Below, one piece after another: positions 3,476-41,819 of a DNA stretch of 64,000 nucleotides (position 1 is its first letter; every line of letters starts with the position of its first letter). This DNA is from a virus (taxonomy: Duplodnaviria; Heunggongvirae; Uroviricota; Caudoviricetes): the IMG/VR virus record IMGVR_UViG_3300016667_000484, positions 1 to 64,000 of that record; one strand, given 5' to 3'. A program made the translations under genes and the position numbers. The notes below the pieces were generated by a model. That model searched no databases. It worked only from the letters and a program-made list of their open reading frames with translations, and was not told the DNA's origin.

Positions 3476-3777
3476 CAGCGGGCTCCTTTACAAGGCTTTC
3501 GTAGAGTTCCCCACCCACCCGTGACATCGTCTGTTGCGCCACAATCGTCACAGATGAAGTCAAACGTTGATGCATCAGAGGATCGTACAGCTTTGTGACT
3601 TTCATGGATTTTGTCCGGCCATTCTTCTTTTGGTTTAGCTGCATCTCGGTACTCCTTGATTTCTCTCGCCATTGAGAGGATCATATCAGACATGCTGCTG
3701 CGAATAGTATTGCCTCTAAAGCCATCTTCGAGGCAATACTGAAGAAGATCGTCACTGATTTTCATATCAGTCCCCAC
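3475..3777 (-). CDS. hypothetical protein with C-terminal CxxC pair
   Basis: 100-aa ORF whose stop and start are coupled to neighbours. It is preferred over the overlapping 3435-3644 frame. Confidence 0.45.
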   Translation of the reverse strand: MGTDMKISDDLLQYCLEDGFRGNTIRSSMSDMILSMAREIKEYRDAAKPKEEWPDKIHESHKAVRSSDASTFDFICDDCGATDDVTGGWGTLRKPCKGAR

Positions 3778-4912
3778 CCTTCAGCAGGAACTGATTGCTG
3801 ATCGTCTTGAAGCTAAAGCTCGGGTCTTTGTTGCACTTCCAGACGAGACCTTCGCGGATCTTGTGATTGATGCTCGGACCTTCTGCAAGAGCAAGACCTT
3901 CTTCAACACTGTTTGGTGCTTTCCAATCAGTGCCGAGAATTGGTACATGATCAAATCCCCAAGAATTACATGCTACTCTGCGATCAAGGCTATTGATGTA
4001 CGTATGGCGGTCAATGTCGAAAACATCGAACACGAAGAACTTATGCTCAGAAAAACCTTCACGGTTACCTTGAATACCTGGACCCATTAGTTCGCCTTGG
4101 AAAGCAAAGCCATCAGGAATACGCTCGCCGATCTTGAGAGCCATAGCAACGAAGGTGTTGTCTTTGTTCTCTTCGTTGATCTTCATTTCAAGGTTTCGAC
4201 TGCACACACGAAGTTCATCTTCCCAGCGGAAGATCGTGCAGCTCGAGCCATCGAGCTTCATGGTGACTTCGTAAGTCGGCTCCTTGAAGTCTTCCGGTAC
4301 GACGACCGGATGCTCTTCAAGAGTCTGAGTCTCAGCGTTCCAGACCTTCTCAGTAGCAAACCGCTTGGCCCGCTTTTGGATCTCACCAAAGCAGTTCTGA
4401 ATCCGCTCCTGATCGGTCTTGGGAATGAGCGAAGTTGGGAACATTCCAGCAGCTTGGCCCTGAAGCTGAGCAGGAATAGGAGCTTCCCACTTTTGAATGC
4501 CGAGAATAGCAGTAACGTCAAGACCAATTACTTCATCGTCGGTCCAGTCTGACTGCCAATCCCAAGTATTTGCTTCTGGGAATTTATGGAAGTCGACGTG
4601 CTTTGTCCACACAGTATGGATCGGCAGCAAAAGCCCCTGTGAAACCTGTCCGCGAAGCTTGATCGTCCGCAGACGTTCACCCTTTACACCATTGTACTCA
4701 CGAGGCTCTTGTCCCTTCGATAGGAACGGAGCGAGTTCATGAGGAACCCACGAGTCAATTTCAATGTAGAGCGCAAGATCAGCGACCTTGAACTCGCCTT
4801 TCTTGACGACGACTTTCCAACCATCGATGGTAGCAACCACGATAGCGTCAGCACCTTCGATCGGTTGAATGTCGGCGATACGCCGAATGCTAGCAAGTTT
4901 ACGTTCAGTCAT
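3767..4912 (-). CDS. ATP-dependent RNA ligase family protein (second ligase, Rnl-like)
   Basis: 381 aa with nucleotidyltransferase motif I KLDGSS (TMKLDGSSCTIF). It is not the DNA ligase, which lies at 8807. Confidence 0.65.
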   Translation of the reverse strand: MTERKLASIRRIADIQPIEGADAIVVATIDGWKVVVKKGEFKVADLALYIEIDSWVPHELAPFLSKGQEPREYNGVKGERLRTIKLRGQVSQGLLLPIHTVWTKHVDFHKFPEANTWDWQSDWTDDEVIGLDVTAILGIQKWEAPIPAQLQGQAAGMFPTSLIPKTDQERIQNCFGEIQKRAKRFATEKVWNAETQTLEEHPVVVPEDFKEPTYEVTMKLDGSSCTIFRWEDELRVCSRNLEMKINEENKDNTFVAMALKIGERIPDGFAFQGELMGPGIQGNREGFSEHKFFVFDVFDIDRHTYINSLDRRVACNSWGFDHVPILGTDWKAPNSVEEGLALAEGPSINHKIREGLVWKCNKDPSFSFKTISNQFLLKGGD

Positions 4913-6639: not shown

Positions 6640-6851
6640 TAGTATACTCCTAGTAGAAGTGCTTCAACTTCTGGGTGGGCGACCATAGGCTTCATGACCT
6701 TGACAGGTTTGTAGACGTGCTCGATCTTGTTGCAAGAAGTGATCATGATTGCAATCTCCGGACCAAGTACACACTTGATCCCAGGTGTGTACTTGACCGA
6801 GTCTGCTGTTTCAATATCTACCGTATAAGGCGTCATCATGCGCGCATCCAC
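6639..6851 (-). CDS. hypothetical protein
   Basis: 70-aa ORF with coupled stop and start. Confidence 0.4.
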   Translation of the reverse strand: MDARMMTPYTVDIETADSVKYTPGIKCVLGPEIAIMITSCNKIEHVYKPVKVMKPMVAHPEVEALLLGVY

Positions 6852-7960
6852 TCCATCAGTGCTTCGTACTTCGGCGTCGAGCCAATGTTCTTCTTGCAGT
6901 AGTCGAGCAGCAGGTCCCGCAGAACCGCACCGTCGATCAGCCGGAAGATGAAACCACCGTCGGCCTTGTTGATCAGGTTCGGCACCATCTCGAGCGCGAT
7001 GCGCTTCTTGTCAGCACCATAGATCGTCCGAGCCAGCATCTCGAGACCTTCAAGCCGACCTTCAGCGTTGCGGAAAGCTTCCCAGAAAGCAGCCTCAACA
7101 TTGTCGACGCGAACCAAGTCCGAAGGATCGAGCATAGCCCGAGTGTCGTCGATAGTCTCGTTCAGGACGAGCTCAACGATGTTACGATCAACGGCAACGA
7201 TGTCCTTGGTCTTGTGGATCTGCACGTACCAGTCATTTTTGCACTTAACCATCATACCATCATCGAAGCGGATAATGTCCCCTTCTCGATTAGTTTCTCC
7301 TCGCGAAAATGCAAGGTAAGCATCAAGATCATGAATGCTGGCATAAGTTGCAACAACCTCAAACGGGGTAAAAATCTCTCGTAGATCTACATATACCCCA
7401 GATACGGTCTCACGAACACCAGTCAGGATCAGCTTCGGCTCGACGTATTCAACCACGATCTTGTTGGTAGGAGCAATATACTCGAAGATCGGAGTGAAGC
7501 CATCAGCCATCATGTCGTCGAGCCAGTTGTACTGATCAACGTCAAGAAGCTTCTCAGCTTCCATCGCGATGTCGGTCACACCCATCTTGGTAGCAAGACG
7601 AACCATTCCATGCATACGCACAGGACGTATCATCGAACCATCGAGTTTGTCCATCACGACGTGATCACGAGTCAGGTCCAAACGATGCGACTGAGTTTCT
7701 TCCTTCTCGTTCACATTGAAGAACTTGTGATACGGGCGGGACATGATGTCGCCTTCGGGATAGAAGATCATACCACGACATTCGCGACGAATGGCACCCA
7801 TCACATCGTCAGGACCTTCCATCTTGAAGGTGTCGGGCATGGCGACGAGATAGTTGATCACGGTACCGAAGTCACGCTCAGCAACAACGAACTCGTCACG
7901 ACCAGCGATTGCCGGAAGAACGTCAGCGATCGTACGAATTTCAGGGAACTTGTAGTGCAT
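6836..7960 (-). CDS. rnlA: RNA ligase 1 (T4 RnlA-like)
   Basis: 374 aa, the same length as T4 Rnl1. Motif I is VVMDKLDGSMI. Early promoter at 7985-8013. Confidence 0.75.
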   Translation of the reverse strand: MHYKFPEIRTIADVLPAIAGRDEFVVAERDFGTVINYLVAMPDTFKMEGPDDVMGAIRRECRGMIFYPEGDIMSRPYHKFFNVNEKEETQSHRLDLTRDHVVMDKLDGSMIRPVRMHGMVRLATKMGVTDIAMEAEKLLDVDQYNWLDDMMADGFTPIFEYIAPTNKIVVEYVEPKLILTGVRETVSGVYVDLREIFTPFEVVATYASIHDLDAYLAFSRGETNREGDIIRFDDGMMVKCKNDWYVQIHKTKDIVAVDRNIVELVLNETIDDTRAMLDPSDLVRVDNVEAAFWEAFRNAEGRLEGLEMLARTIYGADKKRIALEMVPNLINKADGGFIFRLIDGAVLRDLLLDYCKKNIGSTPKYEALMEWMRA

Positions 7961-13548: not shown

Positions 13549-13915
13549 CTATTTTTTTGTTGCGAACAGCAATTTTTACAGCCCAAGCTGCAGCACAGTA
13601 GAATGCATCACCGACTTCGAGTTGGAACCCATTGAACTCGAAACGCTTGAGTACACGATCACCGTTCCAGCATGGATACTCGGGAATCTCGATGTAGCCG
13701 CGAGCTTTCAAAAGTCTACGAACTTCTGCAAACGCAGGATGATCTTCTTGCGCTGCTGTGACTCCGTAGTGACCTTCAAACTCATAACGAATCAGGCAAT
13801 CAGTCACGAGTTCATCAGGAATCACGACCTTGGGGTTCTCTACTTCTTTCGGCAATCCTCTTGCCTCTATAGCCTTTAGAAGTAGTTCTGCGGGGATTAC
13901 GTTGTTCCACGACAT
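13529..13915 (-). CDS. hypothetical protein
   Basis: 128-aa ORF. Confidence 0.5.
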   Translation of the reverse strand: MSWNNVIPAELLLKAIEARGLPKEVENPKVVIPDELVTDCLIRYEFEGHYGVTAAQEDHPAFAEVRRLLKARGYIEIPEYPCWNGDRVLKRFEFNGFQLEVGDAFYCAAAWAVKIAVRNKKIVDISEG

Positions 13916-14475
13916 TAGTCGACAAACTCCTTGAGAAGCACCTTCGCTTGTGCGGTGATGTCTTCGAATGCTACAGGTGTGTAGTTGATCACTTCGACCG
14001 AGACGTTGATGTAGCGACCAACTGGTGTAGGGTTACCATGGATGTGTCCATGGATGTTGCAGAAGAAGTTCCTGCTTCCAGGTGCACCAACTTCATGTTG
14101 TGAAGGATGAAGCGGGATGTGCGAGAAGTGAAGCTTCTCATCGCGGAACTTGCGCTCGAGATGAACCTTCTGGAAGAAGCCACCTGACGTCAGATACTTG
14201 ATGTCGTCGTGATTGCCGACACAGAGACGCTTGCTTCCGTTCAGCTTCGGCCAGAGCTTCTCAAAGCGCTTAGTGTCACCAAACATTACGTCGCCGAGAT
14301 GCCAGACCTTGTCACCCTTCTTAACGACAGAGTTCCAGTTCTCAACCATACACTCGTCCATCTCATCGACATTGGCAAAGCCAGGACGAACCTTCAGACC
14401 AGTGCGAGAGTCGATGAAGTTCAGGATGTTCTCATGACCAAAGTGTGTGTCAGAGATTAGCCAAATGTTACTCAT
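13915..14475 (-). CDS. calcineurin-like metallophosphoesterase
   Basis: ISDTHFGH, GNHD and GHIHG motifs. Confidence 0.8.
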   Translation of the reverse strand: MSNIWLISDTHFGHENILNFIDSRTGLKVRPGFANVDEMDECMVENWNSVVKKGDKVWHLGDVMFGDTKRFEKLWPKLNGSKRLCVGNHDDIKYLTSGGFFQKVHLERKFRDEKLHFSHIPLHPSQHEVGAPGSRNFFCNIHGHIHGNPTPVGRYINVSVEVINYTPVAFEDITAQAKVLLKEFVD

Positions 14476-14631: not shown

Positions 14632-16047
14632 TTACACACCTTCCTTTGCACGTTCACGAATGGTTGCAAAGTCGTCTTCAACAAGGATAGCACCGTTGCG
14701 GAATACCGGACGAAGCATGTTCTTGACCGACAAGAACTCCCAGACATAGTCTTCAGGCACCGTGGAGATGTGTCCACCTTCATTTACCAGAGCCAGACGA
14801 CCCTGCTTCGACTTCTTACCGTGGTCTGTGATCGGGTCTTTTGCGAACCCCTTCCAAAGACCGTCAGCACCTTTGATCGCCGAAGCTTTCATCGCGTACT
14901 TCAAGGTGTCGCGGTTCCAAGCCTGCAGCAGACCACCACCCATACCAAAGGCGATGTTGTCGACAGAGATACCTTCGAGGATCAGGTTGCCGAGGATGAT
15001 CGGCAGCGACTTCTCGTTGATGCCGTCGCCCTGAATAACTCGGATGTGCGGAGGCAGGACCTTGAAGCCCTTGCTGTTGATGCTGTATCCGAACTTGTCC
15101 ATCAGGATCTTGATGACTTCGATCGGAACAACGGTAGGATCACCTGAGTCGGGACGTACCACCAAGGTGCCACCCGACAGAATGATCTTGTCTTTCAGGG
15201 CAGTGCCCCAAAGATCAGAACATGCTTTGTAGATGTCGAAGCTGTCAGACACACAGGCATAGAGTTTACCTGGGCCAGCAAACTTGTCGATCATATTCTC
15301 GAATGCGTTGACTTCGTTCTCGCGGCCCCAAGAGGTGATCGTCGAGTGTTCAGACGCAGGGATCGAGAAGCCAACCACTTCATCGGTGTTGTAGTATTCC
15401 ATAACACCGACAAGTGCTTCAGCAGTGTCAGTGCCCCAGAAGTTCACGAGGTGAGCCATGCCGCCAAGAACTGCAGTCTCACTCGAGGAAGCACCACGAG
15501 CACCGAAGTCATGCAACTTGAAGTTGATCTGAGCTTCGACAGGAACGTCGGAAGTCTTCTCGAGAGCGGCTTTGATGAACTTCTTCATCTTGCGGCTCTT
15601 GGTCGCGACAGTCGAAGGGTACCAGACGCCACGCAGAAGTGCAGTCTCGAGGTACGAAGTCAGCCACCACAGACGAGGATCGGTGTTAACCACCTGCACC
15701 TGTACGTTGTGAGTAGGCATAACCGTACCTTCAGGAACAGCCTCGATCTCAACAGGAAGCATACCGTTGTATTCGTTGACGATGATTTCCCAACCTTCGC
15801 GGTTGAAAGGCAGACCATGTGCGGTCACGATCTTCTCAGCACGATCGACATCCTTCATCGTGATAGGCGTCGTCATGTAATCTTTCATGAAAGCCTGAAG
15901 ACCGAAGAAGACCGATTCATCTTCACCACCACGCGACTCGATGTACGAAGACACGTGAGTCGTGCCAGCAGGGTATTGTACCCACTGAGAGAATTTGTAG
16001 CTGTCAGTGCGGATGATTGCAGAGATTAGATTTAGTACAGTTTTCAT
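14632..16047 (-). CDS. nadV: nicotinamide phosphoribosyltransferase (NAMPT)
   Basis: 471 aa with the typical NAMPT/PBEF sequence (RTDSYKFSQW ...). Confidence 0.9.
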   Translation of the reverse strand: MKTVLNLISAIIRTDSYKFSQWVQYPAGTTHVSSYIESRGGEDESVFFGLQAFMKDYMTTPITMKDVDRAEKIVTAHGLPFNREGWEIIVNEYNGMLPVEIEAVPEGTVMPTHNVQVQVVNTDPRLWWLTSYLETALLRGVWYPSTVATKSRKMKKFIKAALEKTSDVPVEAQINFKLHDFGARGASSSETAVLGGMAHLVNFWGTDTAEALVGVMEYYNTDEVVGFSIPASEHSTITSWGRENEVNAFENMIDKFAGPGKLYACVSDSFDIYKACSDLWGTALKDKIILSGGTLVVRPDSGDPTVVPIEVIKILMDKFGYSINSKGFKVLPPHIRVIQGDGINEKSLPIILGNLILEGISVDNIAFGMGGGLLQAWNRDTLKYAMKASAIKGADGLWKGFAKDPITDHGKKSKQGRLALVNEGGHISTVPEDYVWEFLSVKNMLRPVFRNGAILVEDDFATIRERAKEGV

Positions 16048-16716: not shown

Positions 16717-17730
16717 TTAACCGATGTTCAGGAAGTTGTCAATAATAAAGAAGTGATCCTCGAACATTTTTTCTTGTTTCACGTCTTTGAAGGGAACCCA
16801 GAATGCTTTCTCGGCGTCGTCAGATCCTTTCACCTTCGGCAGTTCACCGACGCCAAGATCGATGTGGAAAGCCTGAGTGATGGTGCGACCGCGAGACGAG
16901 CGGTTCGGAGCGTCGAAAGTCTTCGAGCCTTTGATGGAACCCTTCAGAACAGGAACAGGAACCTTGATCTTGGTTTCTTCCTTGAGTTCACGAATGGCAC
17001 CGTCAAGCATCGTCTCGTCTTGGTTCAAGAAGCCTCCCGGAAGAGCCCAGAGTCCTTTGCCAGGCATGTCACCACGCTTGACCAAAAGGATATGGCCGGA
17101 TTGAACTACAACTGCATCAACAGTCATGAAGGTCGGAGGGAACGGTGCAGCTTTCCAAGCTTCCTTGTACTTCTTGACCATCTGGTATTCGTTGTACAGA
17201 GTGTCCCAGTAACCGCCAATTCTGCCACCAGCAACGATGATCTTGTTCATCACGATCCGTGCATCATCAGGCATGTTGTCAAGCGCAGCGAAGTCACAGT
17301 TGCCGAACAAGCAGTTACGGATGTCAGTTGCATTGATACCACCGACATCTGCAACTTCTACGTGGTTCTTCCACTTTGGGAAGATGTTCAAGTAGTAGCT
17401 GGTGCTGTCCTTCGAGTGACCGATCAGTCCGACATCTTGTGCATGGGGAACGGTTTCGTCGACGATCTTCTGGATCGCGTTGACCCACTTGTTGTCGTCG
17501 TACGGGTAGTCAGAAACGGGAACGACTTTGACGCGATCTGTTGGGAACACCGCTTCGATCATCGCTTTGCGTTCTTGGAATGTGAAGGGATTTCGAATGT
17601 TGCGAGCTGCGAAACTGGAACCGACGACTACGACGACTTCCTTTGCTTGCTCAAGCGCGGCTTCGATGACCGCTTTGTGTCCATTGTGAAACGGTTGGAA
17701 CCGACCGATAAAGACGAGTGCGTCTCGCAT
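16717..17730 (-). CDS. natV: bifunctional NMN adenylyltransferase / Nudix hydrolase (NadM-Nudix)
   Basis: GRFQPFHNGH nucleotidyltransferase motif and the Nudix box GGFLNQDETMLDGAIRELKEETKI. Start at MRDALVF with RBS AAGGAG. TATAAATA at 17780-17787. Confidence 0.9.
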   Translation of the reverse strand: MRDALVFIGRFQPFHNGHKAVIEAALEQAKEVVVVVGSSFAARNIRNPFTFQERKAMIEAVFPTDRVKVVPVSDYPYDDNKWVNAIQKIVDETVPHAQDVGLIGHSKDSTSYYLNIFPKWKNHVEVADVGGINATDIRNCLFGNCDFAALDNMPDDARIVMNKIIVAGGRIGGYWDTLYNEYQMVKKYKEAWKAAPFPPTFMTVDAVVVQSGHILLVKRGDMPGKGLWALPGGFLNQDETMLDGAIRELKEETKIKVPVPVLKGSIKGSKTFDAPNRSSRGRTITQAFHIDLGVGELPKVKGSDDAEKAFWVPFKDVKQEKMFEDHFFIIDNFLNIG

Positions 17731-17779
17731 GCAAAAACTCCTTTTGCTATTTAGTAGGAGCCTCACTGGCTCCTACTTC

Positions 17780-17818
17780 TATTTATACCATCAGTTGATC
17801 AAATGTCAACTACTATTT
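17780..17818 (-). promoter_or_regulatory. composite promoter: TTGACA-N16-TATAAATA (sigma70-like and T4-late-like -10)
   Basis: On the minus strand TTGACATTTGATCAACTGATGGTATAAATAG, followed by a hairpin and the natV RBS. Confidence 0.5.
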
Positions 17819-18571
17819 TACGAAAGCCACTCTTTGTTCTAAAGTGAGGTCTCCGAAGTACCCAAGATCAACTGACTCAACACGAGTACGTTGAACTTTC
17901 AGGTCTGCAGGGCGTTTGTGCTCGGGAATTTTCTCAAGCTCTTCTTGAGTCAAGAATGTCTCACGAACCACGGGTTTCACATAAGTGCCATACTTCCAAA
18001 CATTCGGAAGATCTTCCCAATCGTTGTCGCGAAGGCTCAAGAGGTTTCTCATCTGCTCACCGTTGAGGTTCTGCATCTCTGCATGACCAACATTCCAACG
18101 GAAGTAAGAAGAGATGCTGTTCTTACGAGCGTCTTGTACACGCCATAGAAGAACGTTAGATGCCTCGACGTCGGTTGGAACTTGCCAGCCCCTGCAGTCA
18201 AAGTATGCATGCTGATCTGTGCCAGTGATATGATGGTTGAAGTGTGCAGTCGCCATCGATGCGAACACCGAGTTGATCTTCGACACCTTTCCACCAAAGA
18301 TTCGCTCACCTTCAGTCGGAGCGTAGATCAGAGTGATCTCGTCTGACTGAGTGTAACCAACCGAAGCATGGGTCTCTTTCACCAGCGCCTTAGTCGTAGT
18401 CACCATCGCGTTAGTCACTCGCCAATCGAACGGCTTAGTGAAAGGCCGCGTAAACTTGCTAAAGCCACGTCCGTCGATCCGAACACACATGAACTGAGTC
18501 GGATCGAGTTTCATCGAAGTGAAGGTGCTTTCATACGCCTTCATCCGATCGCCAAAGTCATCGTTCTTCAT
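17813..18571 (-). CDS. tRNA-His guanylyltransferase (Thg1)-like protein
   Basis: FMCVRIDGRGFSKFTRPFTKPFD ... GYTQSDEITLIY matches the Thg1/TLP N-terminal catalytic core (VVRIDGxxFxxF ... GESDE). Confidence 0.75.
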   Translation of the reverse strand: MKNDDFGDRMKAYESTFTSMKLDPTQFMCVRIDGRGFSKFTRPFTKPFDWRVTNAMVTTTKALVKETHASVGYTQSDEITLIYAPTEGERIFGGKVSKINSVFASMATAHFNHHITGTDQHAYFDCRGWQVPTDVEASNVLLWRVQDARKNSISSYFRWNVGHAEMQNLNGEQMRNLLSLRDNDWEDLPNVWKYGTYVKPVVRETFLTQEELEKIPEHKRPADLKVQRTRVESVDLGYFGDLTLEQRVAFVK

Positions 18572-19764
18572 TCGTCATCTTCTTTCGTCAGTTCAGCGAC
18601 AGCGCTGTCTTCATGGACATAAGTGATAGCCCCATGATAACCAGGTGTACGCTCGGTGTAGTAGTAACCTTTACGGTAATCGAGCGGCTTGAAGTAGTTC
18701 AGGAGTTCAGTGGCATCATATGTCTTAGCCATCGACTCAGCTTTCGTCTTGAACAGAACAGGAACAGTTTGTTCACCACAACTCATGTTCATATCTACAG
18801 TGTAGTTCGTGCGCTCGAGCACTTCGTCGGTACCGCGATGAGCATGTGTGTAGTCGACTTCACGAAGCATCTCTCCGAGAGGAATAACAAAGGATTTAGC
18901 GAAGTCACACTTCACTCGGTCTTCGTTAATCGGCATCAGGTCTTTGATCTCAGTCTTACGAATGACGATCTTGGCCTTTTGGATCTCAGGAACATCGGAA
19001 CGATAGTAGCACCGGCTCGTCTGAGTCACGCCATTTTCATCAAGGTGATACTCAGTGTAGACGAAAGCAGGCTTATCTTGCTTGCGGTTGACGATCGTCT
19101 TCACCTTTGTGGTCACGCCAGAGAAGTCAGTACGAGGATGACGATTCCAACTGTAGTAGTAATTGCGTTCATTCGGATCTTTGCGCCACACTTGCGCACC
19201 GACAAGGTTGTACGCGAGACGACCTTCGAAGCGATACAGGACGTTACCTGCCTTGTTCATGAACCAGTCACCTGCGTTCAGACCAACACGAACAGGGCCG
19301 TTCTTGTAGTGTTTGTACTCTTCAGTGTTGCTCGAGATGAGGTAGTTATTTCCACCGTATCGAGCCCAGACTAGCGGTTCCATGATCGTACCTTGAACGA
19401 TCGTGTGGTGTTCGATCAGATCAAGAAGGTTGTTCACGTCGATCTCAAGCTCAAAACCACGTGGGTCTTCAACACGGAAGAACTTATTCGACGTTGAATA
19501 ACGACTTACTGTGTCGACGATCTTGAAACCATGTGTCGGCTTGTTGTCAAGATCCATCGGAGCGAGGTCTTTTTCCGCCCAGCCATCGACAGTCGCTTTT
19601 CGCTTTTTGAATGCATAGTCACCTGTGTTCGGTGTTGCGAAGCCAAGCATACGAAATGCTTCATCGCGATTGTATCGGTTCTTCTGGAAACCAACGTAGT
19701 ACTTGTCGTGGAACTTGATGTCGCGCATAATGTAATCCTTGTTTGTGAAACGGGAGCCATTCAA
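18568..19764 (-). CDS. hypothetical protein
   Basis: 398-aa ORF. Alternative start at 19728, with an RBS at either. Confidence 0.6.
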   Translation of the reverse strand: MNGSRFTNKDYIMRDIKFHDKYYVGFQKNRYNRDEAFRMLGFATPNTGDYAFKKRKATVDGWAEKDLAPMDLDNKPTHGFKIVDTVSRYSTSNKFFRVEDPRGFELEIDVNNLLDLIEHHTIVQGTIMEPLVWARYGGNNYLISSNTEEYKHYKNGPVRVGLNAGDWFMNKAGNVLYRFEGRLAYNLVGAQVWRKDPNERNYYYSWNRHPRTDFSGVTTKVKTIVNRKQDKPAFVYTEYHLDENGVTQTSRCYYRSDVPEIQKAKIVIRKTEIKDLMPINEDRVKCDFAKSFVIPLGEMLREVDYTHAHRGTDEVLERTNYTVDMNMSCGEQTVPVLFKTKAESMAKTYDATELLNYFKPLDYRKGYYYTERTPGYHGAITYVHEDSAVAELTKEDDE

Positions 19765-21544: not shown

Positions 21545-22179
21545 TTCAGTTTTCCTTGAACAAATTGAGAGAGGGAGATGGTGTATAGAATACCATCGCA
21601 TACTTGCAGGTAGAAGTCTCGATGGTTTGGATCAGCAGTGATGTTGCCATTGACACGATGTAGCAACGTAGTCATGAACTTTTCTGAGTTCTCTGCGAAT
21701 GTAACCATGTCGATGTTGTAGAGTTTCATCGACTCTGACATGATTTTACCAAAGTTTTGGAAAGCTGTCAACTGATTTGTGAGGCCATGAAGATCTGCAC
21801 GAACAATAGCCGAAGCTCGTTCGCACGGTGTAACGACATGTTGTTCAGTGTGCAAGATTAGACGATACACCCTGTCTCTTTCCCAGATGTCAGGAGTGCA
21901 TCCTGTGTACTGGTCTGCCATATCGAGAAAAGCCTTCGCTGATCTAAGCTCTTTCTCTGGTTGATCGTCATAGACGATGTCGTGGAAGAGAACCGCCCAG
22001 TCAAGAGCTTCATCGTACGGTTCGTTCGTATCAGCAAGGTACTGATACATAGATTCGACATGTTCAAAGTTGTGATACGTACACCCGAACAATCCGTTCA
22101 ACTCGATCAGACCACGTGCTTCAAGAGCCAGAGGTGTGTCTTGGATTCGGCTCCAAGCAAGGCCTGTCCAATTAGTCAT
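21541..22179 (-). CDS. HD-domain phosphohydrolase
   Basis: YHNFEHVESM ... AVLFHDIVYD gives H..H...HD...D. Start at MTNWTG with RBS GAAGGG. The 65-aa N-terminal extension in the ORF track looks spurious. Confidence 0.6.
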   Translation of the reverse strand: MTNWTGLAWSRIQDTPLALEARGLIELNGLFGCTYHNFEHVESMYQYLADTNEPYDEALDWAVLFHDIVYDDQPEKELRSAKAFLDMADQYTGCTPDIWERDRVYRLILHTEQHVVTPCERASAIVRADLHGLTNQLTAFQNFGKIMSESMKLYNIDMVTFAENSEKFMTTLLHRVNGNITADPNHRDFYLQVCDGILYTISLSQFVQGKLK

Positions 22180-22699
22180 TCTTAACACCCTTCTCGGCAA
22201 GAGTGTTGCCGAACAGATCGACGATGAGGATGTAGTCGAAACCTTCATCGAGTTCAGGCTCAACGTAGGTCGAAGCCATTGCCTCGACGATGTGCATCGG
22301 GATGATTTTGCCAGGACGCGAATCGAGACGACGCTGCAGTTCAGCCCACTCCTCGTCAGTGCGAGGCGGAGCAATACAGCGACAGATCTTGCGATAGTTC
22401 TTCGGAACCTTCGCCAGGATACCGCGCCGCTTCTTGGCGCTCATGTTGGTCTGATCCCAGCAGACGCTGTAACCTTGCTTCAGGGCAAGAGCGAGCATCT
22501 CGTTCATGTGCTTCGTCGCCGGCTCGATGAACTCCTTGAACGCTTCATTGTACGTCCAACCGTTCATATTTGCACAGCGCTCGATGTAGTTATCGGTGCT
22601 GTAGACGAAGACGCCGGCAGGATCTTCACCGAACACGCTGTTCACAAACGTCGACTTACCTGAACCCGGCAAACCGACAAGAACTTCAACCTTAGACAT
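22172..22699 (-). CDS. P-loop nucleotide/polynucleotide kinase-like protein (Pnk kinase-domain-like)
   Basis: Walker A GLPGSGKSTF. Start at MSKVEV with RBS GGAAGGTG. Confidence 0.6.
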   Translation of the reverse strand: MSKVEVLVGLPGSGKSTFVNSVFGEDPAGVFVYSTDNYIERCANMNGWTYNEAFKEFIEPATKHMNEMLALALKQGYSVCWDQTNMSAKKRRGILAKVPKNYRKICRCIAPPRTDEEWAELQRRLDSRPGKIIPMHIVEAMASTYVEPELDEGFDYILIVDLFGNTLAEKGVKND

Positions 22700-22970
22700 A
22701 TTCACCTTCCACTTCATCTTTGAAGACTTCGGTGAAGACCGCTTCACCGTACTCACCGGTGGTGTACAGACCCAGTTCCCAGAGCCGAGCGACAAGCTTC
22801 GCGTCAGCTTCGTTCTTCATGAACATCGTATTCGCGAGTTCACCGTACTTCGAACCAGACAAGCTGATCCAAAAATCAACGATGTAGGTAACCTTGGTGT
22901 ACGAACCATCGTAGTCACCGTAGCAGACATCAATCTCAATTTCTTCAGTGCTCACGACCGCGGTCGCCAT
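22692..22970 (-). CDS. hypothetical protein
   Basis: 92-aa ORF. Early promoter at 22995-23024. Confidence 0.5.
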   Translation of the reverse strand: MATAVVSTEEIEIDVCYGDYDGSYTKVTYIVDFWISLSGSKYGELANTMFMKNEADAKLVARLWELGLYTTGEYGEAVFTEVFKDEVEGEYV

Positions 22971-35676: not shown

Positions 35677-36066
35677 TCAACCAGCCGATCGAGTGATGAA
35701 GTTCACTCTCACTTTGGTAGGCTTAAAGTACTTCTCGATCATGTCTTGAGCAACACCGATGTCGACTGGTTTGCACGAGAAGATGTCGAAATATGCATCG
35801 CCGTTTGAGTCGACGAGATGACCGCTGATGTTGCTGGTCTCGATCATCTGACAGAAACTGATGCCTGCTTTGTCAGGTGCATGAGTGGCAAAATGTTCAA
35901 TCATTGGTTCACCAAACGCGACCATGTCGATCGCCGGAACAAGTTCTTTGATGAAGTTGTATACGTTTTCTTTGCTTGCAATCAATGCTTTGTCACAAGC
36001 ACCACAGTCAAACATCGCATGATAACCCCAGTACGCCATCTCACACCTCTCATTGTTGGTGCTCAT
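35677..36066 (-). CDS. S-adenosylmethionine decarboxylase proenzyme-like (SpeH class, pyruvoyl)
   Basis: IETSNISGHLV ... YFDIFSC resembles the AdoMetDC ESH cleavage region and DIFTCG motif. 129 aa. Confidence 0.55.
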   Translation of the reverse strand: MSTNNERCEMAYWGYHAMFDCGACDKALIASKENVYNFIKELVPAIDMVAFGEPMIEHFATHAPDKAGISFCQMIETSNISGHLVDSNGDAYFDIFSCKPVDIGVAQDMIEKYFKPTKVRVNFITRSAG

Positions 36067-36135
36067 AAGGTGAATCGAACACCTATCAACGGAGTACGAA
36101 ACCGTTGTAATGCCATTATACTATATGAGCGTTGT

Positions 36136-36211
36136 TGGTGCTGCAGGAGGGAATCGAACCCACGACCTGATGCTTACAAGGCAACTGCTCTACCGACTGA
36201 GCTACTACAGC
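36136..36211 (-). tRNA. tRNA-Thr(TGT)
   Basis: Hand-folded cloverleaf. Acceptor GCUGUAG/CUGCAGC, D-arm GCUC..GAGC, anticodon loop CUUGUAA, T-loop UUCGAUU, CCA encoded. Confidence 0.75.
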
Positions 36212-36217
36212 GTTATT

Positions 36218-36290
36218 TGGAGCGGGTAGCCGGAATCGAACCGGTCTCCTACAGCTTGGAAGGCTGCCTGGCTACCATAGCCTTACCCGC
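36218..36290 (-). tRNA. tRNA-Gly(TCC)
   Basis: Acceptor GCGGGUA/UACCCGC, anticodon loop CUUCCAA. It resembles T4 tRNA-Gly. TATAAATA at 36299-36306 lies just 5' of it. Confidence 0.8.
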
Positions 36291-36298
36291 GTTATTCT

Positions 36299-36306
36299 TA
36301 TTTATA
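36299..36306 (-). promoter_or_regulatory. T4-type late promoter TATAAATA immediately 5' of the tRNA-Gly/tRNA-Thr pair
   Basis: tatttata on the plus strand reads TATAAATA on the minus strand, 9 nt upstream of the tRNA-Gly 5' end. Confidence 0.5.
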
Positions 36307-36553
36307 CTTGATGCTTCCACTCAACACCATCGTAGTCAAGGTTTTTTGCGATGGTGGAATAGAATTGCCGTTGAGCGTCTTGGAACGCATCCTTGTCAGT
36401 ACTGAGTACAGTTACATTGATGGGTTCAAGGGAATTCTTTTTGTAGGGCATAGCGATAAACGTTCGCTTCTTCACACCCTTCTTCATCAGAAGTTTGCCA
36501 TAACCATATGGCTTGTTGTTCAAGATGTCTTCGAGTTCTTCACGGTTCAGCAT
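36302..36553 (-). CDS. hypothetical protein
   Basis: 83-aa ORF. Confidence 0.5.
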   Translation of the reverse strand: MLNREELEDILNNKPYGYGKLLMKKGVKKRTFIAMPYKKNSLEPINVTVLSTDKDAFQDAQRQFYSTIAKNLDYDGVEWKHQV

Positions 36554-36771
36554 TAGTACGATCCGATACCTTTTCGAGCTGGTTTCATTTCATTCCAAGA
36601 GAGATAGCTCTCGATGATCTTGCCTTTATAGTCGAAAGCATGCTTGACATCGAAGTTGTTCATCGCGTGTTCGACGATCGCCTTCTTTGTGATCTTGCCA
36701 TACTCAGCTTTGATCACTTCATCATCAACTTCAACCGAGATGGTAACAGTGACGTGGACGGCGTGCTTCAT
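36553..36771 (-). CDS. hypothetical protein
   Basis: 72-aa ORF. A TTGACA-type promoter lies upstream at about 36810-36830. Confidence 0.5.
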   Translation of the reverse strand: MKHAVHVTVTISVEVDDEVIKAEYGKITKKAIVEHAMNNFDVKHAFDYKGKIIESYLSWNEMKPARKGIGSY

Positions 36772-37241
36772 CTATGCTCTCTTCTATTGATAGAATCAGC
36801 TTACACCATATCCACGTCAATGTCAACTAGTTTATGCGCAGTTGGTTACTACATTTCCAACGACAGTGTTACGACCTGTCAGCAAGGATAGCCGGCATGT
36901 TCAGTTATCCTATACCCATCGGACGGTACATGCAAGTCCCGATGGAGCTCGTTGTTTCCTACGCAACGTCTGGTACATTTTAGATAGTAGATTTAGATTT
37001 ACTATGGTAGTCTTATATTACAGTAGTCTATTATAAGGTGACTTCTCATCTGTCGCGAAGTTTTCTCGTGGGACCAGTAGACCACGGTCTTTTCCAGCGG
37101 TGATCTAGCAGTGCCTGGACATCACAATTCTAAGTCGTACGCCAGATGCTAGATCACTTGAGATCTTTTTACCTTCGACCGAGACGATCGGTCTGACTAA
37201 TACAATTAGTCAACCCTAACCGATACGAAACCTTTATCGTA

Positions 37242-37613
37242 TCATACATCCGGGCCAGATGTATTCTTTAGCCACTTGTCAAACTGTTCGTCTGGAAGTG
37301 GTTTGTGCACAGTCATACTTGGGTAGACTCGAACTTCGGTCATTCCGAGAGCAGCTTTCGCTTTGATCACTGCTGATTGCTGGTCACTATCATTCTCATC
37401 GAATGGATTCTTCTCTGGCGCAGTGAATGGCTTTCCATTCAAGTAAGCGTACGCGATGAGAAGTCCACGTACTTCTGAGCGTTCTTTTACTAACGCGTAC
37501 TGCGCTTCAGCTTGAGGACCATAATGGTCAACATGCTTTCGTGCTTGACGCTTGCTGTCTTTGATGTCAATCGCCAGAGTCTTAAGTCGTGCTTTGATTT
37601 CTTGCTTGTTCAT
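37242..37613 (-). CDS. hypothetical protein
   Basis: RBS AAGGA before MNKQEIK. Confidence 0.5.
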   Translation of the reverse strand: MNKQEIKARLKTLAIDIKDSKRQARKHVDHYGPQAEAQYALVKERSEVRGLLIAYAYLNGKPFTAPEKNPFDENDSDQQSAVIKAKAALGMTEVRVYPSMTVHKPLPDEQFDKWLKNTSGPDV

Positions 37614-37956
37614 GATGCATTCCTTCTGAATTTTGTTTTCTTGTGAGATTAGTCGTAGTAGGTATCGGTACAACTGTCTCATGAAGGTGCATCCCGAATG
37701 GTGGCTAACCCATTCTCGATCAAAAGCGAACACTTACGAATCTTGATCGCCCCTTTCGTTGCAGGGTTATCAGGAGTCTCTTTCGTGCTCCAGCCTTTGA
37801 GGCATTCCACATGGTTCACGTAGAATGTTTGGCCTTTTGCTTTAAGAACCCACATAGGGATCGTAGCGTCTTCAAGGTGTTTCTTGTTGAAGTGAAATAT
37901 AACTTCAGTATTTTCGATAATCTAGGACATTTATATGCTCCATGTTGAAGTGTAAG

Positions 37957-37964
37957 TATAAATA
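37957..37964 (+). promoter_or_regulatory. TATAAATA late promoter upstream of homing-endonuclease gene 37981
   Basis: Exact octamer, 16 nt before the ATG. Confidence 0.55.
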
Positions 37965-37980
37965 TATGCAGGAGGTAACA

Positions 37981-38583
37981 ATGACAACACCATACACATA
38001 TCTAGTAGGATGGTCAAACTATGACCTTTGGTATTATGGCGTAAGATTCGCCAAAGGCTGTAACCCTAATGATTTATGGGTTACATATTTCACATCATCT
38101 AATCGGGTCAAGCACACCCGAGAACAATACGGTGAACCAGATGTTGTTGAGATTAGACGCGTTTTTAAGAATCAAGATTCTGCTAGAGTTTGGGAACACA
38201 AAGTGTTAAAAAGAATGAAAGTCATCAAAAATAGCAAATGGTTGAACCAAACAGATAATGTATCAATTGGGATGGATGTTCAAACTAGAATCAAAATCTC
38301 AAACACTAAGAAAGGCCGACCTAACAGCGAAAGCCATAATAGAAAGATAGGCGACTTTCATCGTGGAAAGATTGAATCCGCTGAAACAAGGCTCAAAAAG
38401 TCGTTGTCAAGAACAGGTAAAACCCATTCAGACGAAACTTTAAGAAAGCTATCAGAAAACTCCGGAAGAGCAAAACCTGTTGAAGTCAATGGTGTTATGT
38501 ATAGAAGCCTTAAACATGCTGCACAAACGCTATTCCCAGACTCTCCAGATATTCGAAAGGTTAAACGTTTACTCGCTACCTGA
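37981..38583 (+). CDS. homing endonuclease-like protein (GIY-YIG/Seg-like)
   Basis: YTYLVGWSNYDLWYYGVRFAKG N-terminus and NUMOD-like repeats. TATAAATA at 37957-37964. RBS aggagg. Confidence 0.6.
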   Translation: MTTPYTYLVGWSNYDLWYYGVRFAKGCNPNDLWVTYFTSSNRVKHTREQYGEPDVVEIRRVFKNQDSARVWEHKVLKRMKVIKNSKWLNQTDNVSIGMDVQTRIKISNTKKGRPNSESHNRKIGDFHRGKIESAETRLKKSLSRTGKTHSDETLRKLSENSGRAKPVEVNGVMYRSLKHAAQTLFPDSPDIRKVKRLLAT

Positions 38584-38606
38584 GTCAGTTTCCTTTGTTA
38601 AGTGAA

Positions 38607-38682
38607 TGGTTGCCCCGGCGGGAATCGAACCCGCAACCGAGTGGTTTAGAAGCACCTGCTCCACCAATTGAGCTACGGGGCC
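38607..38682 (-). tRNA. tRNA with anticodon CTA (amber-suppressor-like)
   Basis: Acceptor, D-arm (GCUC/GAGC) and T-arm (GCGGG UUCGAUU CCCGC) are good. The anticodon loop UUCUAAA is fixed by the flanking arms. G1.A72 and C31.C39 are mismatched. Confidence 0.55.
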
Positions 38683-39251
38683 AAGCTGGTTCTCACACTT
38701 TGAACCGAATGTCGTCTAGAACTGAGTGACCCGCCTTTCGGCTACTATACATAGGTATCTAGATCGAACAATAGTAAGGTGACAGGATTTATCCTCGATT
38801 CCTCCGACACTGAGATGACTGGATGGTCGTCGTCCTTGTCGAGGCATTACCTGTCTCTATGATCATGGTTTTTACACCAAGATTTGTTGCAGTACCCATC
38901 CGAAACTGGTAAGCGGCGGTTCTATTGCGAAAGTCAGTTGCAGGAACTTACCAAGAAAGATTACGCCGAACAGTAGTTGAAGTTAACAGAATGTTTGCCT
39001 ACTCTCTATTTTATGTGGGAGAATCGAAAGCCACGTGCGTTTACCAATTAAACAGTATGTTTTGATTGATTGCTGTACACATTCTAAATTCTGGTGTCGG
39101 CTTCAGGTTATCACATTAACTTAGCCCAATCTTCACGCGAAGGGTACCGACATATTGGTGGACCTGCACGGTTACGATCCGTGTCCTCTACATTGCAAGT
39201 GTAGAATGCTCCCATTATCACCACAGGCCCGTGTTGAGGTTACCCTGACCA

Positions 39252-39328
39252 GTCCATTTTAAGTTTGGACAAACTTGGTGTCACCACCGGGAGTACCAGT
39301 CCATTTTGAGTTTGGACAAACTTGGGGC
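39252..39328. repeat. two direct copies of a 31-bp unit containing the palindrome AAGTTTGGACAAACTT
   Basis: cagtccatttt(a/g)agtttggacaaacttgg occurs at 39252-39282 and 39298-39328. Confidence 0.6.
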
Positions 39329-39445
39329 TGAAAAGCCACTCCACCACCTGCTTTTACGAAAACAGGAAAATTCGTCAGGATCGTTTTTGTCCGCTAAGAC
39401 ATGCATTGATTTAGCGTTTTGGTTTGCTGAACCGATCCTATATTT

Positions 39446-39522
39446 TGGTCCGGCATGTAGGGATCGAACCTACGACCTCTTGATCCCAAATCAAGCGCGC
39501 TCCCAGACTGCGCTAATGCCGG
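39446..39522 (-). tRNA. tRNA-Pro(TGG)
   Basis: Anticodon stem CUUGA/UCAAG, loop UUUGGGA, T-loop UUCGAUC. Confidence 0.75.
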
Positions 39523-39585
39523 ATAATTCTAAAAGAAGAGGCACCGTTACTACAACGAGGCTGCCGTGTTTATCCTCTTCTCAAT

Positions 39586-39668
39586 TTGGCATACGTGGGA
39601 GGAATCGAACCCCTGGCGGACGGTTTTGGAGGCCGTTGTTAGCACCAGCTAACTATACGCTCCACGTA
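39586..39668 (-). tRNA. tRNA-Trp(CCA) with atypical D-arm
   Basis: Perfect acceptor AUACGUG/CACGUAU. Anticodon arm like E. coli tRNA-Trp (CUCCAAAACCG). 83 nt, because the D region forms an unusual 6-bp hairpin GUUAGC-UGGU-GCUAAC. Confidence 0.55.
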
Positions 39669-39685
39669 TATATTCTTTGGCTCCC

Positions 39686-39720
39686 AGTGTTGGGCTCGAA
39701 CCAACGACCCGGTGATTATA
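39686..39720 (-). pseudogene. tRNA 3'-half fragment (T-arm plus acceptor 3' strand), similar to the tRNA-Asn at 40374
   Basis: tggctcccagtgttgggctcgaaccaacgacccg matches the tggctcccagtgtagggctcgaacctacgacccg 3' end of tRNA-Asn. No 5' half. Confidence 0.5.
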
Positions 39721-39767
39721 TCCAGTCTAACTTTGGATGCGTTGGAGAGGATTTGAATAGTAATTTA

Positions 39768-40250
39768 TCAATCCCATATTTTTTTCCAGCTGTGTTCGTA
39801 AGCAGAATAATCCTGACCGTGAGATTTAGAAAGAGCATCTGCGTGCTCTGATGCTTCTTTGGCGTTTTTAATATGTGTTTTATGCTCAGCAGTGAGACGA
39901 TCAACAACTCGTTTACTGTAATCTCTAGATTCAGATCCAAGGGCAGGATTTTCAGATCGTTTTTTATGGAAATTGAGCTCTCTAACTCTTTCTCGTGAAT
40001 AACGTAAATGCGCCGAAACATGATGTTGCAAAGCTTTATGATGTGCATCAGATAATTCTACATGCATTTTATATTCTGGAGTTTTTTTCTTTTTGGCGTC
40101 AGCAAGACGACGCGCTCTTACATCGTGGATAGAACTTTTAACTTGATGTTCCTGAGCTTTTAGTATGTGGGCGTGTTCCTGAGCTTTTTCGTACTCAGAT
40201 CTATTATCAGTAACATAACTATCTGTTAATAATTGATAAAAATTTTTCAT
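39768..40250 (-). CDS. hypothetical His/Lys-rich protein in an AT-rich insert
   Basis: 160 aa. Local GC is markedly lower than the flanks. TATAAATA at 40277-40284. Confidence 0.5.
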   Translation of the reverse strand: MKNFYQLLTDSYVTDNRSEYEKAQEHAHILKAQEHQVKSSIHDVRARRLADAKKKKTPEYKMHVELSDAHHKALQHHVSAHLRYSRERVRELNFHKKRSENPALGSESRDYSKRVVDRLTAEHKTHIKNAKEASEHADALSKSHGQDYSAYEHSWKKIWD

Positions 40251-40276
40251 TAATCTTCCTTCCAGAGCTTATTGTT

Positions 40277-40284
40277 TATTTATA
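40277..40284 (-). promoter_or_regulatory. TATAAATA late promoter upstream of the AT-rich ORF 39768-40250
   Basis: Exact octamer on the minus strand. Confidence 0.5.
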
Positions 40285-40373
40285 AATTTACACCGTTATG
40301 TGGAACCAAAGGAACCTCCGATTTACTGGTTATGAGCCAGTCGAGATGCCTCTTCTCTACCCCGCAAAAATTT

Positions 40374-40449
40374 TGGCTCCCAGTGTAGGGCTCGAACCTA
40401 CGACCCGCGCATTAACAGTGCGCTGCTCTACCAACTGAGCTAACGAGGA
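40374..40449 (-). tRNA. tRNA-Asn(GTT)
   Basis: Anticodon stem GCGCA/UGCGC, loop CUGUUAA, T-loop UUCGAGC. Confidence 0.75.
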
Positions 40450-40454
40450 ACGAT

Positions 40455-40558
40455 CTCTGTTTCTAACTACACCGGCTAACTTCGGATCCTTGGCCTAGGC
40501 GTTCTAGTAGTTAGCAACTCACCCGTCGGTGTAGTTAGAAACAGAAACTCTACTTTTA
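40455..40558. repeat. nested inverted-repeat element (19-bp perfect outer stem)
   Basis: tctgtttctaactacaccg ... cggtgtagttagaaacaga encloses gctaact...agttagc and the ggatcc/cctagg palindromes. A third copy of tagttagaaacag lies at 40680-40697. TATAAATA at 40756-40763 points into it. Confidence 0.55.
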
Positions 40559-40900
40559 ACTAAACACAAGCCGCCCTGATTTCGCGTGTATTTTACACCG
40601 TTTGACCATCATTCGCACGTCTTGCTAGATGCGGCGCCCACCGTAGGTAAGTCTACTTTCAAGGCCAATTACGACAAGTGTTTAGTTAGAAACAGAGGTT
40701 GGAGTTTCCGCTTTCTTTAAGACCGCTACGGTGTGCGCTAAACACCAACTCTGTTCTATTTATACTCATCGGGTCTTACGGGTTTGTCCCACCCCGATCA
40801 TAATCTATCAATCAAGATTTACTGGTTCATCACCTACTTGATCTTCTCACCTTATAGAGACAATCTAAACCAACTCGATCTAGATGTCAACTACTTTTTT

Positions 40901-40995
40901 CTGTTTTCTTTTATACACCGAGGAATCGAACCTCCTTGCCTTGCCGTTGCGGGGCCTGTGCTTTCCAGTACACCAAGTGTATAAAAGAAAACAGA
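40901..40995 (-). pseudogene. degenerate tRNA-like element enclosed by a perfect 20-bp inverted repeat
   Basis: ttctgttttcttttatacac ... gtgtataaaagaaaacagaa flank a T-arm-like GGAGGUUCGAUUCCUC and a CCGCAAC loop. There is no proper anticodon stem. Confidence 0.45.
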
Positions 40996-41241
40996 AGCGG
41001 CCAGGGACTCGAGTCGACGAGTTTCTCTACCGGATGCACATGTTAGCTCATTTGTGCTTGCAGAGCTTTTGCTCTGGATGGTCGCCAGTCCATCTTTCCT
41101 TCAAGTAGCGCATTAGCGATATGCTATGGCCACCAGCTTCTGTTACCTGATTTTCAAAGAGCAAGGAAGCTCAGGTTGGTTACCGTCTGCGTTCCTTATA
41201 TGTACAATCTATACTGTTCTACAGGAATGTCAACCAGTATT

Positions 41242-41547: not shown

Positions 41548-41591
41548 GGTTTACTCCTCTGGTTAACCTAAATTCTATTTATTTAATGCCG

Positions 41592-41819
41592 TCAACCAGT
41601 ATTTTTCGATTTCCGTACTTTTTTCTTCTGATCACGCATGAGGTGTAAATGCTTTTGATACAGATGCTCTTCTTCGCGTTCTTGGCGAGACTCTCGAATC
41701 GCTTTAATGGCTTTGACCATTCGACGATGGGCTCGAGCCACGAGTGATCGTTGGAATCGATCTTTGCGAGAAGGTTTTTCGATACGAATTTCTGCTTCGT
41801 CTGCAGTTACGTCAGTCAT
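41592..41819 (-). CDS. small basic protein
   Basis: 75 aa, Arg/Lys-rich. Confidence 0.45.
   Translation of the reverse strand: MTDVTADEAEIRIEKPSRKDRFQRSLVARAHRRMVKAIKAIRESRQEREEEHLYQKHLHLMRDQKKKVRKSKNTG

Follow-up and report, generated by a model that had tools for sequence, protein, structure and literature searches.

A Thg1-like protein and a noncanonical tRNA-His encoded by an uncultured large phage

Introduction

Do a Thg1-like protein (TLP) and a tRNA-His without G at position -1 (G-1), encoded by the same phage, serve one purpose? This question is raised by a stretch of 64,000 nucleotides (here called the window) from a virus of the Caudoviricetes, covering positions 1 to 64,000 of the IMG/VR record IMGVR_UViG_3300016667_000484. 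The window belongs to an uncultured large phage, and its gene content is typical of a large virulent phage. An earlier note, made from the sequence alone, had pointed to a Thg1-like open reading frame (ORF) and to a tRNA-His with A73 and no templated G-1, and had proposed that the two form a coherent tRNA-His maturation unit or, alternatively, that the protein repairs tRNA 5' ends. In this study, we closely examined both genes, their relatives in other phages, and their genomic surroundings. Both genes are what they seemed to be, and the comparison speaks more for tRNA 5'-end repair than for a dedicated maturation unit.

Results

The ORF encodes a TLP of the BtTLP-like clade

The ORF at 17813..18571 on the minus strand encodes 252 amino acids (aa) from an ATG start and includes the strings FMCVRIDGRGFSKFTRPF and GYTQSDEITLIY, which the earlier note had cited for its Thg1 assignment. 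Profile searches bore out the membership in the Thg1 family: the protein matches the Pfam Thg1 profile PF04446 with E = 3.7e-30 and 105 bits (cut-off, 29.2), aa 8 to 132 covering positions 2 to 130 of 130, and PHROG 4717 ("tRNA-His guanylyltransferase") with E = 1.8e-66. The Thg1_C profile of Pfam, which had been suggested as a second check, gave no match at E ≤ 1. Among solved structures, the best match was BtTLP (4kgk; E = 9.3e-30, aa 4 to 195), and weaker ones were found to Candida Thg1 (2.9e-7), human Thg1 (3.7e-5), and a Methanosarcina TLP (3.5e-5). The carboxylates D33, D77, and E78 align with the RIDG and SDE motifs of BtTLP and CaThg1; the reference metal-binding carboxylates are D29, D76, and E77 in the human enzyme and D30, D75, and E76 in BtTLP, as counted from the alignment. 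In an alignment of 22 sequences, comprising metagenomic and isolate-phage homologues, D33, S76, D77, and E78 show no variation. An N-terminal segment, GDRMKxYE, is kept in phage TLPs and in BtTLP.

Eukaryotic Thg1 carries a HINNLYN motif, in which H154 stacks on the anticodon base G36 and N156 lies near the incoming GTP (PMC6471195, PMC6191723). At this position, the window protein has QDARKNSISSY and BtTLP has QDASKNSIS. Neither of the two properties expected of a eukaryote-type Thg1, i.e., HINNLYN and greater proximity to Thg1 orthologues than to TLPs, was found, and those of the BtTLP-like clade (full-length similarity, QDAxKNSIS, and GDRMKxYE) were all present. Since HINNLYN is absent and BtTLP is by far the closest relative of known structure, the protein is a TLP and not a bona fide Thg1; it belongs to the BtTLP-like bacterial/phage clade and, by homology, is a predicted 3'-5' nucleotidyltransferase. 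With eukaryotic Thg1 it shares the superfamily and fold (PF04446), but the similarity is low (E = 3e-7 to 4e-5) and neither HINNLYN nor a match to Thg1_C is seen. With BtTLP (4kgk/4kgm) and the Bacillus phage homologues it shares the same carboxylates, QDA(R/S)KNSIS, and GDRMKxYE, whereas overall identity to them is only ~40%, and a C-terminal tail (aa 200 to 252), common to its metagenomic relatives, is longer than that of BtTLP.

BtTLP itself is 78 to 81% identical to TLPs of Bacillus phages, such as gp143 of Bc431v3 (locus L018, 19998-20732) and gp168 of Hobo, a value within the spread among these phage proteins. This structurally and kinetically characterised "bacterial" TLP may thus itself be of phage origin, and given the high identity, its published properties are the best available proxy. 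BtTLP shows a strong preference for templated addition: it adds G-1 with a kcat/KM of 5500 on C73 and 108 on A73, adds U-1 on A73 with ~230, fills in N+1 on 5'-truncated tRNAs 5- to 160-fold better than it adds at -1, and accepts tRNA-Phe as well as tRNA-His (PMC3061083). As far as TLPs have been assayed, they make no use of the anticodon and favour the templated repair of 5'-truncated tRNAs (PMC3061083, PMC6471195).

TLPs are widespread in phages

The view that such genes had gone undescribed in phages did not hold. Using tblastn, the TLP family was found in 164 isolate phage records, and most among the matches listed are annotated as tRNA-His guanylyltransferase. Their hosts include Bacillus (46 records), Prevotella (15 Lak phages), Caulobacter (13), and Mycobacterium (11), followed by Brevundimonas (seven phages), Erwinia, Vibrio, and Aeromonas, with single phages of Ruegeria (DSS3), Sinorhizobium, and Agrobacterium. 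In IMG/VR, TLPs are encoded by at least 580 stretches, and a search of a large protein collection at E ≤ 1e-10 gave 881 homologues, the nearest of these, all metagenomic, being 60 to 94% identical to the window protein. The nearest isolate-phage TLP is 41.5% identical, and cellular relatives, chiefly from Myxococcota and Planctomycetota, reach at most 46%; a "Thg1" of PJN02 is an 88-aa fragment and was set aside.

In 2013, attention was drawn to a TLP gene of Bacillus phage Bc431v3 (PMC3601020), Mukai et al. reported phage tRNA-His without G-1 and with A73 or U73 in 2017 (PMC5389517), and Iyer et al. read the Thg1 genes of jumbo phages as serving 5'-nucleotide restoration in 2021 (PMC7824862). 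A 2019 review of Thg1/TLP enzymes makes no mention of phages or viruses and lists the physiological substrate of bacterial/phage TLPs as unknown (PMC6471195). In the literature searched, we found no biochemical assay of a phage TLP. The window TLP is a further, uncultured-clade member of a phage family already annotated hundreds of times. With the jumbo-phage genes (PMC7824862) and PHROG 4717 it shares the family, the predicted role in 5' restoration, and its company of RNA ligases, a kinase, phosphoesterases, NAD+ salvage genes, and many tRNAs; it differs from them in that its clade, known from metagenomes, has no isolate nearer than the one named above.

The tRNA-His lacks both bacterial identity determinants

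The second gene, a tRNA-His(GUG) with a 7/5 cloverleaf (7-bp acceptor stem, 5-bp T stem), lies 34 kb from the TLP gene at 52717..52791 on the minus strand. It was called by ARAGORN and scores 46.5 bits with the Rfam tRNA model (gathering score, 29). On the minus strand, the leader aaatat is followed by CCUGGUG-UA at the tRNA's 5' end; the tRNA closes with CGCCAGG-A-CCA. The gene therefore has U at -1, C1:G72 as first pair, A73 as discriminator, and an encoded CCA, and lacks both determinants of the bacterial histidyl-tRNA synthetase (HisRS), G-1 and C73.

A pattern scan of IMG/VR yielded four related viral tRNA-His genes. They lie within tRNA islands whose genes follow the same order, on contigs that are fragments of 29 to 75 kb. 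C1:G72, C2:G71, A73, and the encoded CCA are found in all five family members, and the base at -1 is U in four and A in one; the canonical bacterial arrangement, an encoded G-1 paired with C73, occurs in none. In the five-sequence alignment, 100% of the cells are paired in the 7/5 fold, compared with 17 to 48% in shifted registers, and six pairs have changed on both sides, two of them in the acceptor stem (3:70 and 5:68). Covariation and the register test confirm the features that the earlier note had assigned, with neither C73 nor a templated G-1 appearing upon careful refolding, and place the tRNA under selection.

Two alternative pairings were rejected. An (8/4) fold with an acceptor stem of 8 bp and a T stem of 4 bp, as described for phage tRNA-His (PMC5389517), is at odds with the 7-bp acceptor and 5-bp T stems paired in all five members and would require U8/C65 as the eighth pair. 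A meaningful eighth pair between U-1 and A73 was discarded because T is the generic leader base at -1 of the island (28 of 42 tRNA genes), so that U at this position has no special meaning, and because one relative has A.

Searches with blastn of the window tRNA-His against isolate phages gave no match, its exact signature is absent from 185,579 species genomes, and a search for related loci with the ORF adjoining the tRNA-His found none. The D-loop, UAAUGGUA, has 8 nt if A13/G22 is counted as part of the stem and 10 nt with a 3-bp stem. The T-loop is AUCGUAA. This unusual T-loop, GGAUCGUAACC (A54...U58, not T54...A58), is common to the tRNA-His and a tRNA-Ala(UGC) at 39156-39230 on the minus strand, which also resemble each other in the D-arm (GUGAUAAUGG); it is unchanged in the four related viral tRNA-His genes.

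Comparison with known tRNA-His types

The earlier note had likened the tRNA to the eukaryotic and alpha-proteobacterial configuration. This holds for A73 and the missing G-1 and fails for the first base pair. tRNA-His genes without G-1 are known from a clade comprising Rhodobacteraceae, Rhizobiales, Caulobacterales, and Hyphomonadaceae; they have A73, G1:U72 with U72 as HisRS identity element, and a D-loop of 9 nt that includes U20a, and the exchange U72C costs the Caulobacter HisRS 91-fold in charging (PMC3064791). The window family has C1:G72 in five of five members instead of G1:U72; its D-loop counts as 8 or 10 nt, depending on how the stem is drawn. Mimicry of an alpha-proteobacterial host was rejected on the ground of C1:G72; the tRNA-His of an actual Ruegeria phage carries G1:U72. 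This gene, unannotated in Roseobacter phage DSS3P8 (locus L010, 2465-2540; KT870145.1, 15464-15539), combines G1:U72 with U73, lacks G-1, has a T arm that is irregular, and is similar to the (8/4) tRNA-His that Mukai et al. described from phages (PMC5389517). A73 likewise parallels eukaryotic tRNA-His, the substrate of Thg1, but that tRNA starts with G1:C72.

The closest counterparts in acceptor-end features are the tRNA-His genes of Bacillus phages of the Bastillevirinae and Joanripponvirinae (Bc431v3, TsarBomba, QCM8, and Nate), which also have C1:G72 and A73 and no G at -1. They show no similarity to the window gene by blastn, have no encoded CCA, a normal T-loop, and a known host; the acceptor-end signature is thus the same although the tRNA sequences are unrelated. 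No description of this 7/5 class of tRNA-His with C1:G72, A73, and no G-1 was found in the literature searched.

TLP genes and G-1-less tRNA-His genes occur independently

We surveyed which tRNA-His class accompanies a TLP in other phages; "no TLP" here means no hit at E ≤ 1e-20 in a six-frame search. A TLP often occurs together with a canonical tRNA-His (G at -1, G1:C72, C73), as in Bacillus phage G and in three IMG/VR loci (L063, L069, and L104). Other TLP-encoding phages have A73. The Rak2-like Erwinia phage pEa_SNUABM_47 combines it with G at -1 and G1:C72 (locus L017, 42405-42481; MT939487.1, 310404-310480), so that G-1 is unpairable with A73, as in eukaryotic genes, and IMG/VR locus L066 combines it with U at -1 and U1.G72. 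Like the window, the Bacillus phages Bc431v3 (L023), QCM8 (L020), and Emiliahah (L021), with C at -1, and TsarBomba (L026, 4107-4179), with A at -1, encode both a TLP and a C1:G72/A73 tRNA-His.

The same tRNA-His class is found in Bacillus phages with no TLP, namely, BCP8-2 (L025; C at -1) and the siphovirus Nate (L024; A at -1). JBP901, Chewbecca, and MrDarsey also have no TLP, and their tRNA-His is placed here by its blastn match to the QCM8 gene. The tRNA-His of BCP8-2 and that of its TLP-encoding relative Bc431v3 differ by compensatory exchanges in the anticodon stem and the T stem. The signature is therefore present in Bacillus phages of two families, with and without TLP alike. Almost all T4-like phages have no TLP. 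RB18 (L014; NC_054906.1, 68272-68347), avDM12-TAAL (L015, Aeromonas), and nt-1 (L022, Vibrio) are not among the listed TLP hits, and their tRNA-His has U at -1, G1:C72, and C73. In neither TLP search do Escherichia phages figure among the leading organisms, and 152 of their records match the E. coli tRNA-His. When 541 phage records were aligned to this E. coli tRNA, most T4-like matches began at query position 2.

Since TLPs occur with a canonical tRNA-His and the same noncanonical class occurs without a TLP, co-occurrence is not obligate: each is found without the other. Proximity of the genes is also rare. Among the 80 best TLP loci of the at least 580 IMG/VR stretches, any tRNA lies within 10 kb of the TLP in 20 and a tRNA-His in 4; none of the four contigs carrying relatives of the window tRNA-His is among these 80. 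Finally, at least 20 TLP-encoding records stem from phages of Caulobacter or Brevundimonas, which, with other alpha-proteobacterial hosts of TLP-encoding phages, belong to the clade whose own tRNA-His lacks G-1 (PMC3937112, PMC3064791). The HisRS of C. crescentus does not need G-1, and charging is 5-fold lower when G-1 is added (PMC3064791).

The TLP gene lies among predicted genes for RNA-end and NAD+ metabolism

Directly downstream of the TLP gene, an NMN adenylyltransferase-Nudix fusion is encoded at 16717..17766 (Pfam CTP_transf_like and NUDIX), followed by a nicotinamide phosphoribosyltransferase of NAD+ salvage at 14632..16047 (Pfam NAPRTase and NAMPT_N; PHROG 448) and a calcineurin-like phosphoesterase at 13915..14475 (PHROG 547, E = 4e-52; weak Metallophos_2 match), a candidate RNA end-healing phosphatase with counterparts near the TLP in 7 loci. 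Upstream, the stop of an ORF at 18568..19764 reaches 4 nt into the start of the TLP gene, and the two are probably cotranslated; this ORF matches only PHROGs of unknown function and was likewise predicted as a gene on the source contig. An AAA_33 P-loop kinase (22172..22795; PF13671, E = 1.1e-15) is a candidate polynucleotide kinase. Two RNA ligases are encoded further away, one with an N-terminal PHA02142 OB-fold at 3767..4912 (PF09414 and PF21189; PHROG 968) and one of the T4 Rnl1 type at 6836..7960 (PF09511, E = 1.3e-20; PHROG 562), so that the ligase, kinase, and phosphatase genes named in the earlier note are all represented by Pfam or PHROG matches. All of these genes are on the minus strand, as is that of a DUF2828/DUF7788 protein ("RNA-binding protein" according to PHROG 850) at 45302..46744 inside the tRNA island, which may be related to Ro/TROVE proteins.

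Neighbours were clustered for 84 TLP loci. The recurrent ones are dCMP deaminase (11 loci), two clusters of Metallophos phosphoesterases (8 and 7), NMN adenylyltransferase-Nudix proteins (8), Acb1/2H phosphoesterases (7), two clusters of AAA_33 kinases (6 and 5), and nicotinamide phosphoribosyltransferase (6). TLP, NMN adenylyltransferase-Nudix fusion, nicotinamide phosphoribosyltransferase, kinase, and phosphoesterase form a set common to the window and a 275-kb relative. With these recurrent neighbours and the shared set, a module for nucleotide and RNA-end metabolism fits better than one specific for tRNA-His.

Features of the window and its tRNA island

The window is a portion of a metagenomic contig of 195,479 bp (ENA ERZ27292648:k141_55274). 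Among 50,697 isolate phage records, it has no close relative; a megablast of 16 to 20 kb gave no phage match, and searches with the tRNA island found scattered single tRNAs only. An AAA-ATPase ORF at 27662-28792 matches phages with very different hosts and does not indicate the host. The window also encodes ribonucleotide reductase, thymidylate synthase, dihydrofolate reductase, DNA ligase, and a ClpP-like protease, and its GC content is 44 to 50%. No phage HisRS was found among the scanned ORFs of at least 120 aa in the window portion of the contig. A K+-channel-like protein (Ion_trans_2 and TrkA_N) is encoded among the RNA ligase genes at 5400-6476 on the minus strand.

The tRNA island (36057..56249) comprises 42 tRNA genes called by ARAGORN, all on the minus strand and 37 of them with encoded CCA, and includes a GIY-YIG/NUMOD3 homing-endonuclease-like ORF (48824-49495, minus strand). 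An amber-suppressor tRNA (CUA; labelled "Pyl" by ARAGORN) at 38607-38682 on the minus strand has a G1xA72 mismatch, A73, and encoded CCA; Erwinia phage pEa_SNUABM_47 has a comparable annotated tRNA(cta). Bacterial tRNA-Leu normally has a long variable arm. Five of the six tRNA-Leu of the island (42135-42211, 42500-42576, 49551-49625, 49627-49703, and 56092-56168; minus strand) are only 75 to 77 nt long including CCA and thus lack it; all have A73. Both tRNA-Glu genes (50691-50767 and 50850-50926, minus strand) combine C1:G72, U2.G71, and A73, an odd acceptor end for a bacterial tRNA-Glu.

Discussion

On balance, we lean towards the view that the TLP acts as a general tRNA 5'-end repair enzyme within a phage tRNA-maintenance kit, the alternative that the earlier note had mentioned and that fits the comparative evidence better than a maturation unit. 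As a two-metal palm-domain enzyme, the TLP would activate a tRNA 5'-monophosphate and add nucleotides in 3'-5' direction, templated by the acceptor stem's 3' strand. Most likely, its job during infection would be to supply the 5' nucleotides lacking on phage or host tRNAs that are damaged or misprocessed. The putative kit would comprise the 42 tRNAs, both RNA ligases, the kinase, the phosphoesterase, the DUF2828/DUF7788 protein, and the NAD+ salvage enzymes. The tRNA-His would then be a separate feature, a conserved noncanonical phage class also present in phages with no TLP. It may be one substrate of the TLP, receiving an extra 5' nucleotide, but the TLP would not be there specifically for it.

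Several observations weigh against this view. We know of no host defence that damages tRNAs specifically at the 5' end, which leaves the repair substrate hypothetical. The island tRNAs show no systematic 5' mismatches calling for editing, the only G1xA72 being that of the suppressor tRNA, and TLP neighbourhoods are weakly conserved, the top neighbour cluster occurring in 11 of 84 loci. Furthermore, an A73 tRNA-His is found in three unrelated TLP-encoding lineages, i.e., the window family, the Bacillus Bastillevirinae (Bc431v3, QCM8, Emiliahah, and TsarBomba), and the Rak2-like pEa_SNUABM_47, and a canonical HisRS should charge these tRNAs poorly if unaided. BtTLP also complements a yeast thg1 deletion in which A73 tRNA-His is the only one present (PMC3061083).

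The last two points also favour the proposed maturation unit, in which RNase P would cut at +1 and the TLP would add a nontemplated G-1 opposite A73, as eukaryotic Thg1 does. G-1 would then serve the host HisRS as main identity element, and A73 would stop run-on against C74 and C75; A73 indeed blocks continued templated polymerisation (PMC6191723). The purifying selection on a tRNA-His devoid of G-1 and C73 and the GDRMKxYE segment kept in phage and Bt TLPs are in line with it. We nevertheless regard this explanation as rather doubtful. The window enzyme is of the templating TLP type and lacks HINNLYN, and G addition by such an enzyme is ~50-fold worse opposite A73 than opposite C73 in vitro (PMC3061083). 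The same tRNA-His class is retained in phages with no TLP, at least four TLP-encoding lineages have a canonical G-1:C73 tRNA-His, and TLPs are common in phages of Caulobacter and Brevundimonas, although the C. crescentus HisRS makes no use of G-1. The 34 kb between the two genes and the rarity of tRNA-His near TLPs elsewhere argue in the same direction. Complementation by BtTLP and the run-on block by A73 keep G-1 addition alive as a facultative function.

An improbable third explanation is that the tRNA-His needs no phage enzyme, with a host HisRS that ignores G-1, an RNase P that leaves an extra 5' nucleotide on C1:G72, or weak charging through the anticodon, and that the TLP acts on other RNAs or is dispensable. 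G-1-less tRNA-His genes without TLP are indeed widespread (the T4-like phages with C73 and U-1, BCP8-2, JBP901, and Nate), the Ruegeria phage tRNA-His with G1:U72 and U73 is host-like, and U at -1 could pair with A73 in four of the five window-family genes. However, C1:G72 is unlike the known G-1-independent set of G1:U72 and A73, in which the 91-fold loss upon U72C is observed (PMC3064791), and the base at -1 varies, being U or A in the window family and C or A in the Bacillus phages. For Bacillus hosts, a canonical tRNA-His identity would be expected, and yet this class is carried by their phages. Mitochondrial-type 5' editing was rejected, there being no systematic mismatches at acceptor pairs 1 to 3 in the island tRNAs.

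The TLP side of this locus adds little to what is known, while the tRNA-His side raises a modest, testable question. The analysis exposed a recurrent, conserved class of phage tRNA-His without both bacterial HisRS determinants; its C1:G72, A73, and missing G-1 do not vary within two phage groups that are unrelated to each other, one of which infects Bacillus. BtTLP falls among the TLPs of Bacillus phages, and the genomes of these phages carry just such a tRNA-His. It is conceivable, if speculative, that unrelated phages (the metagenomic family and the Bastillevirinae) have evolved a private tRNA-His class to which the TLP, where present, adds G-1 opposite A73, a eukaryote-style maturation in bacterial cells, and that BtTLP is a phage enzyme with this natural substrate. 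If TLPs add G-1 to such tRNAs, this would provide a physiological substrate for bacterial and phage TLPs and explain the recurrence of A73. If they do not, the charging of C1:G72/A73 tRNA-His and of the T4-like G-1-less tRNA-His with C73 would remain a clean question for tRNA biology.

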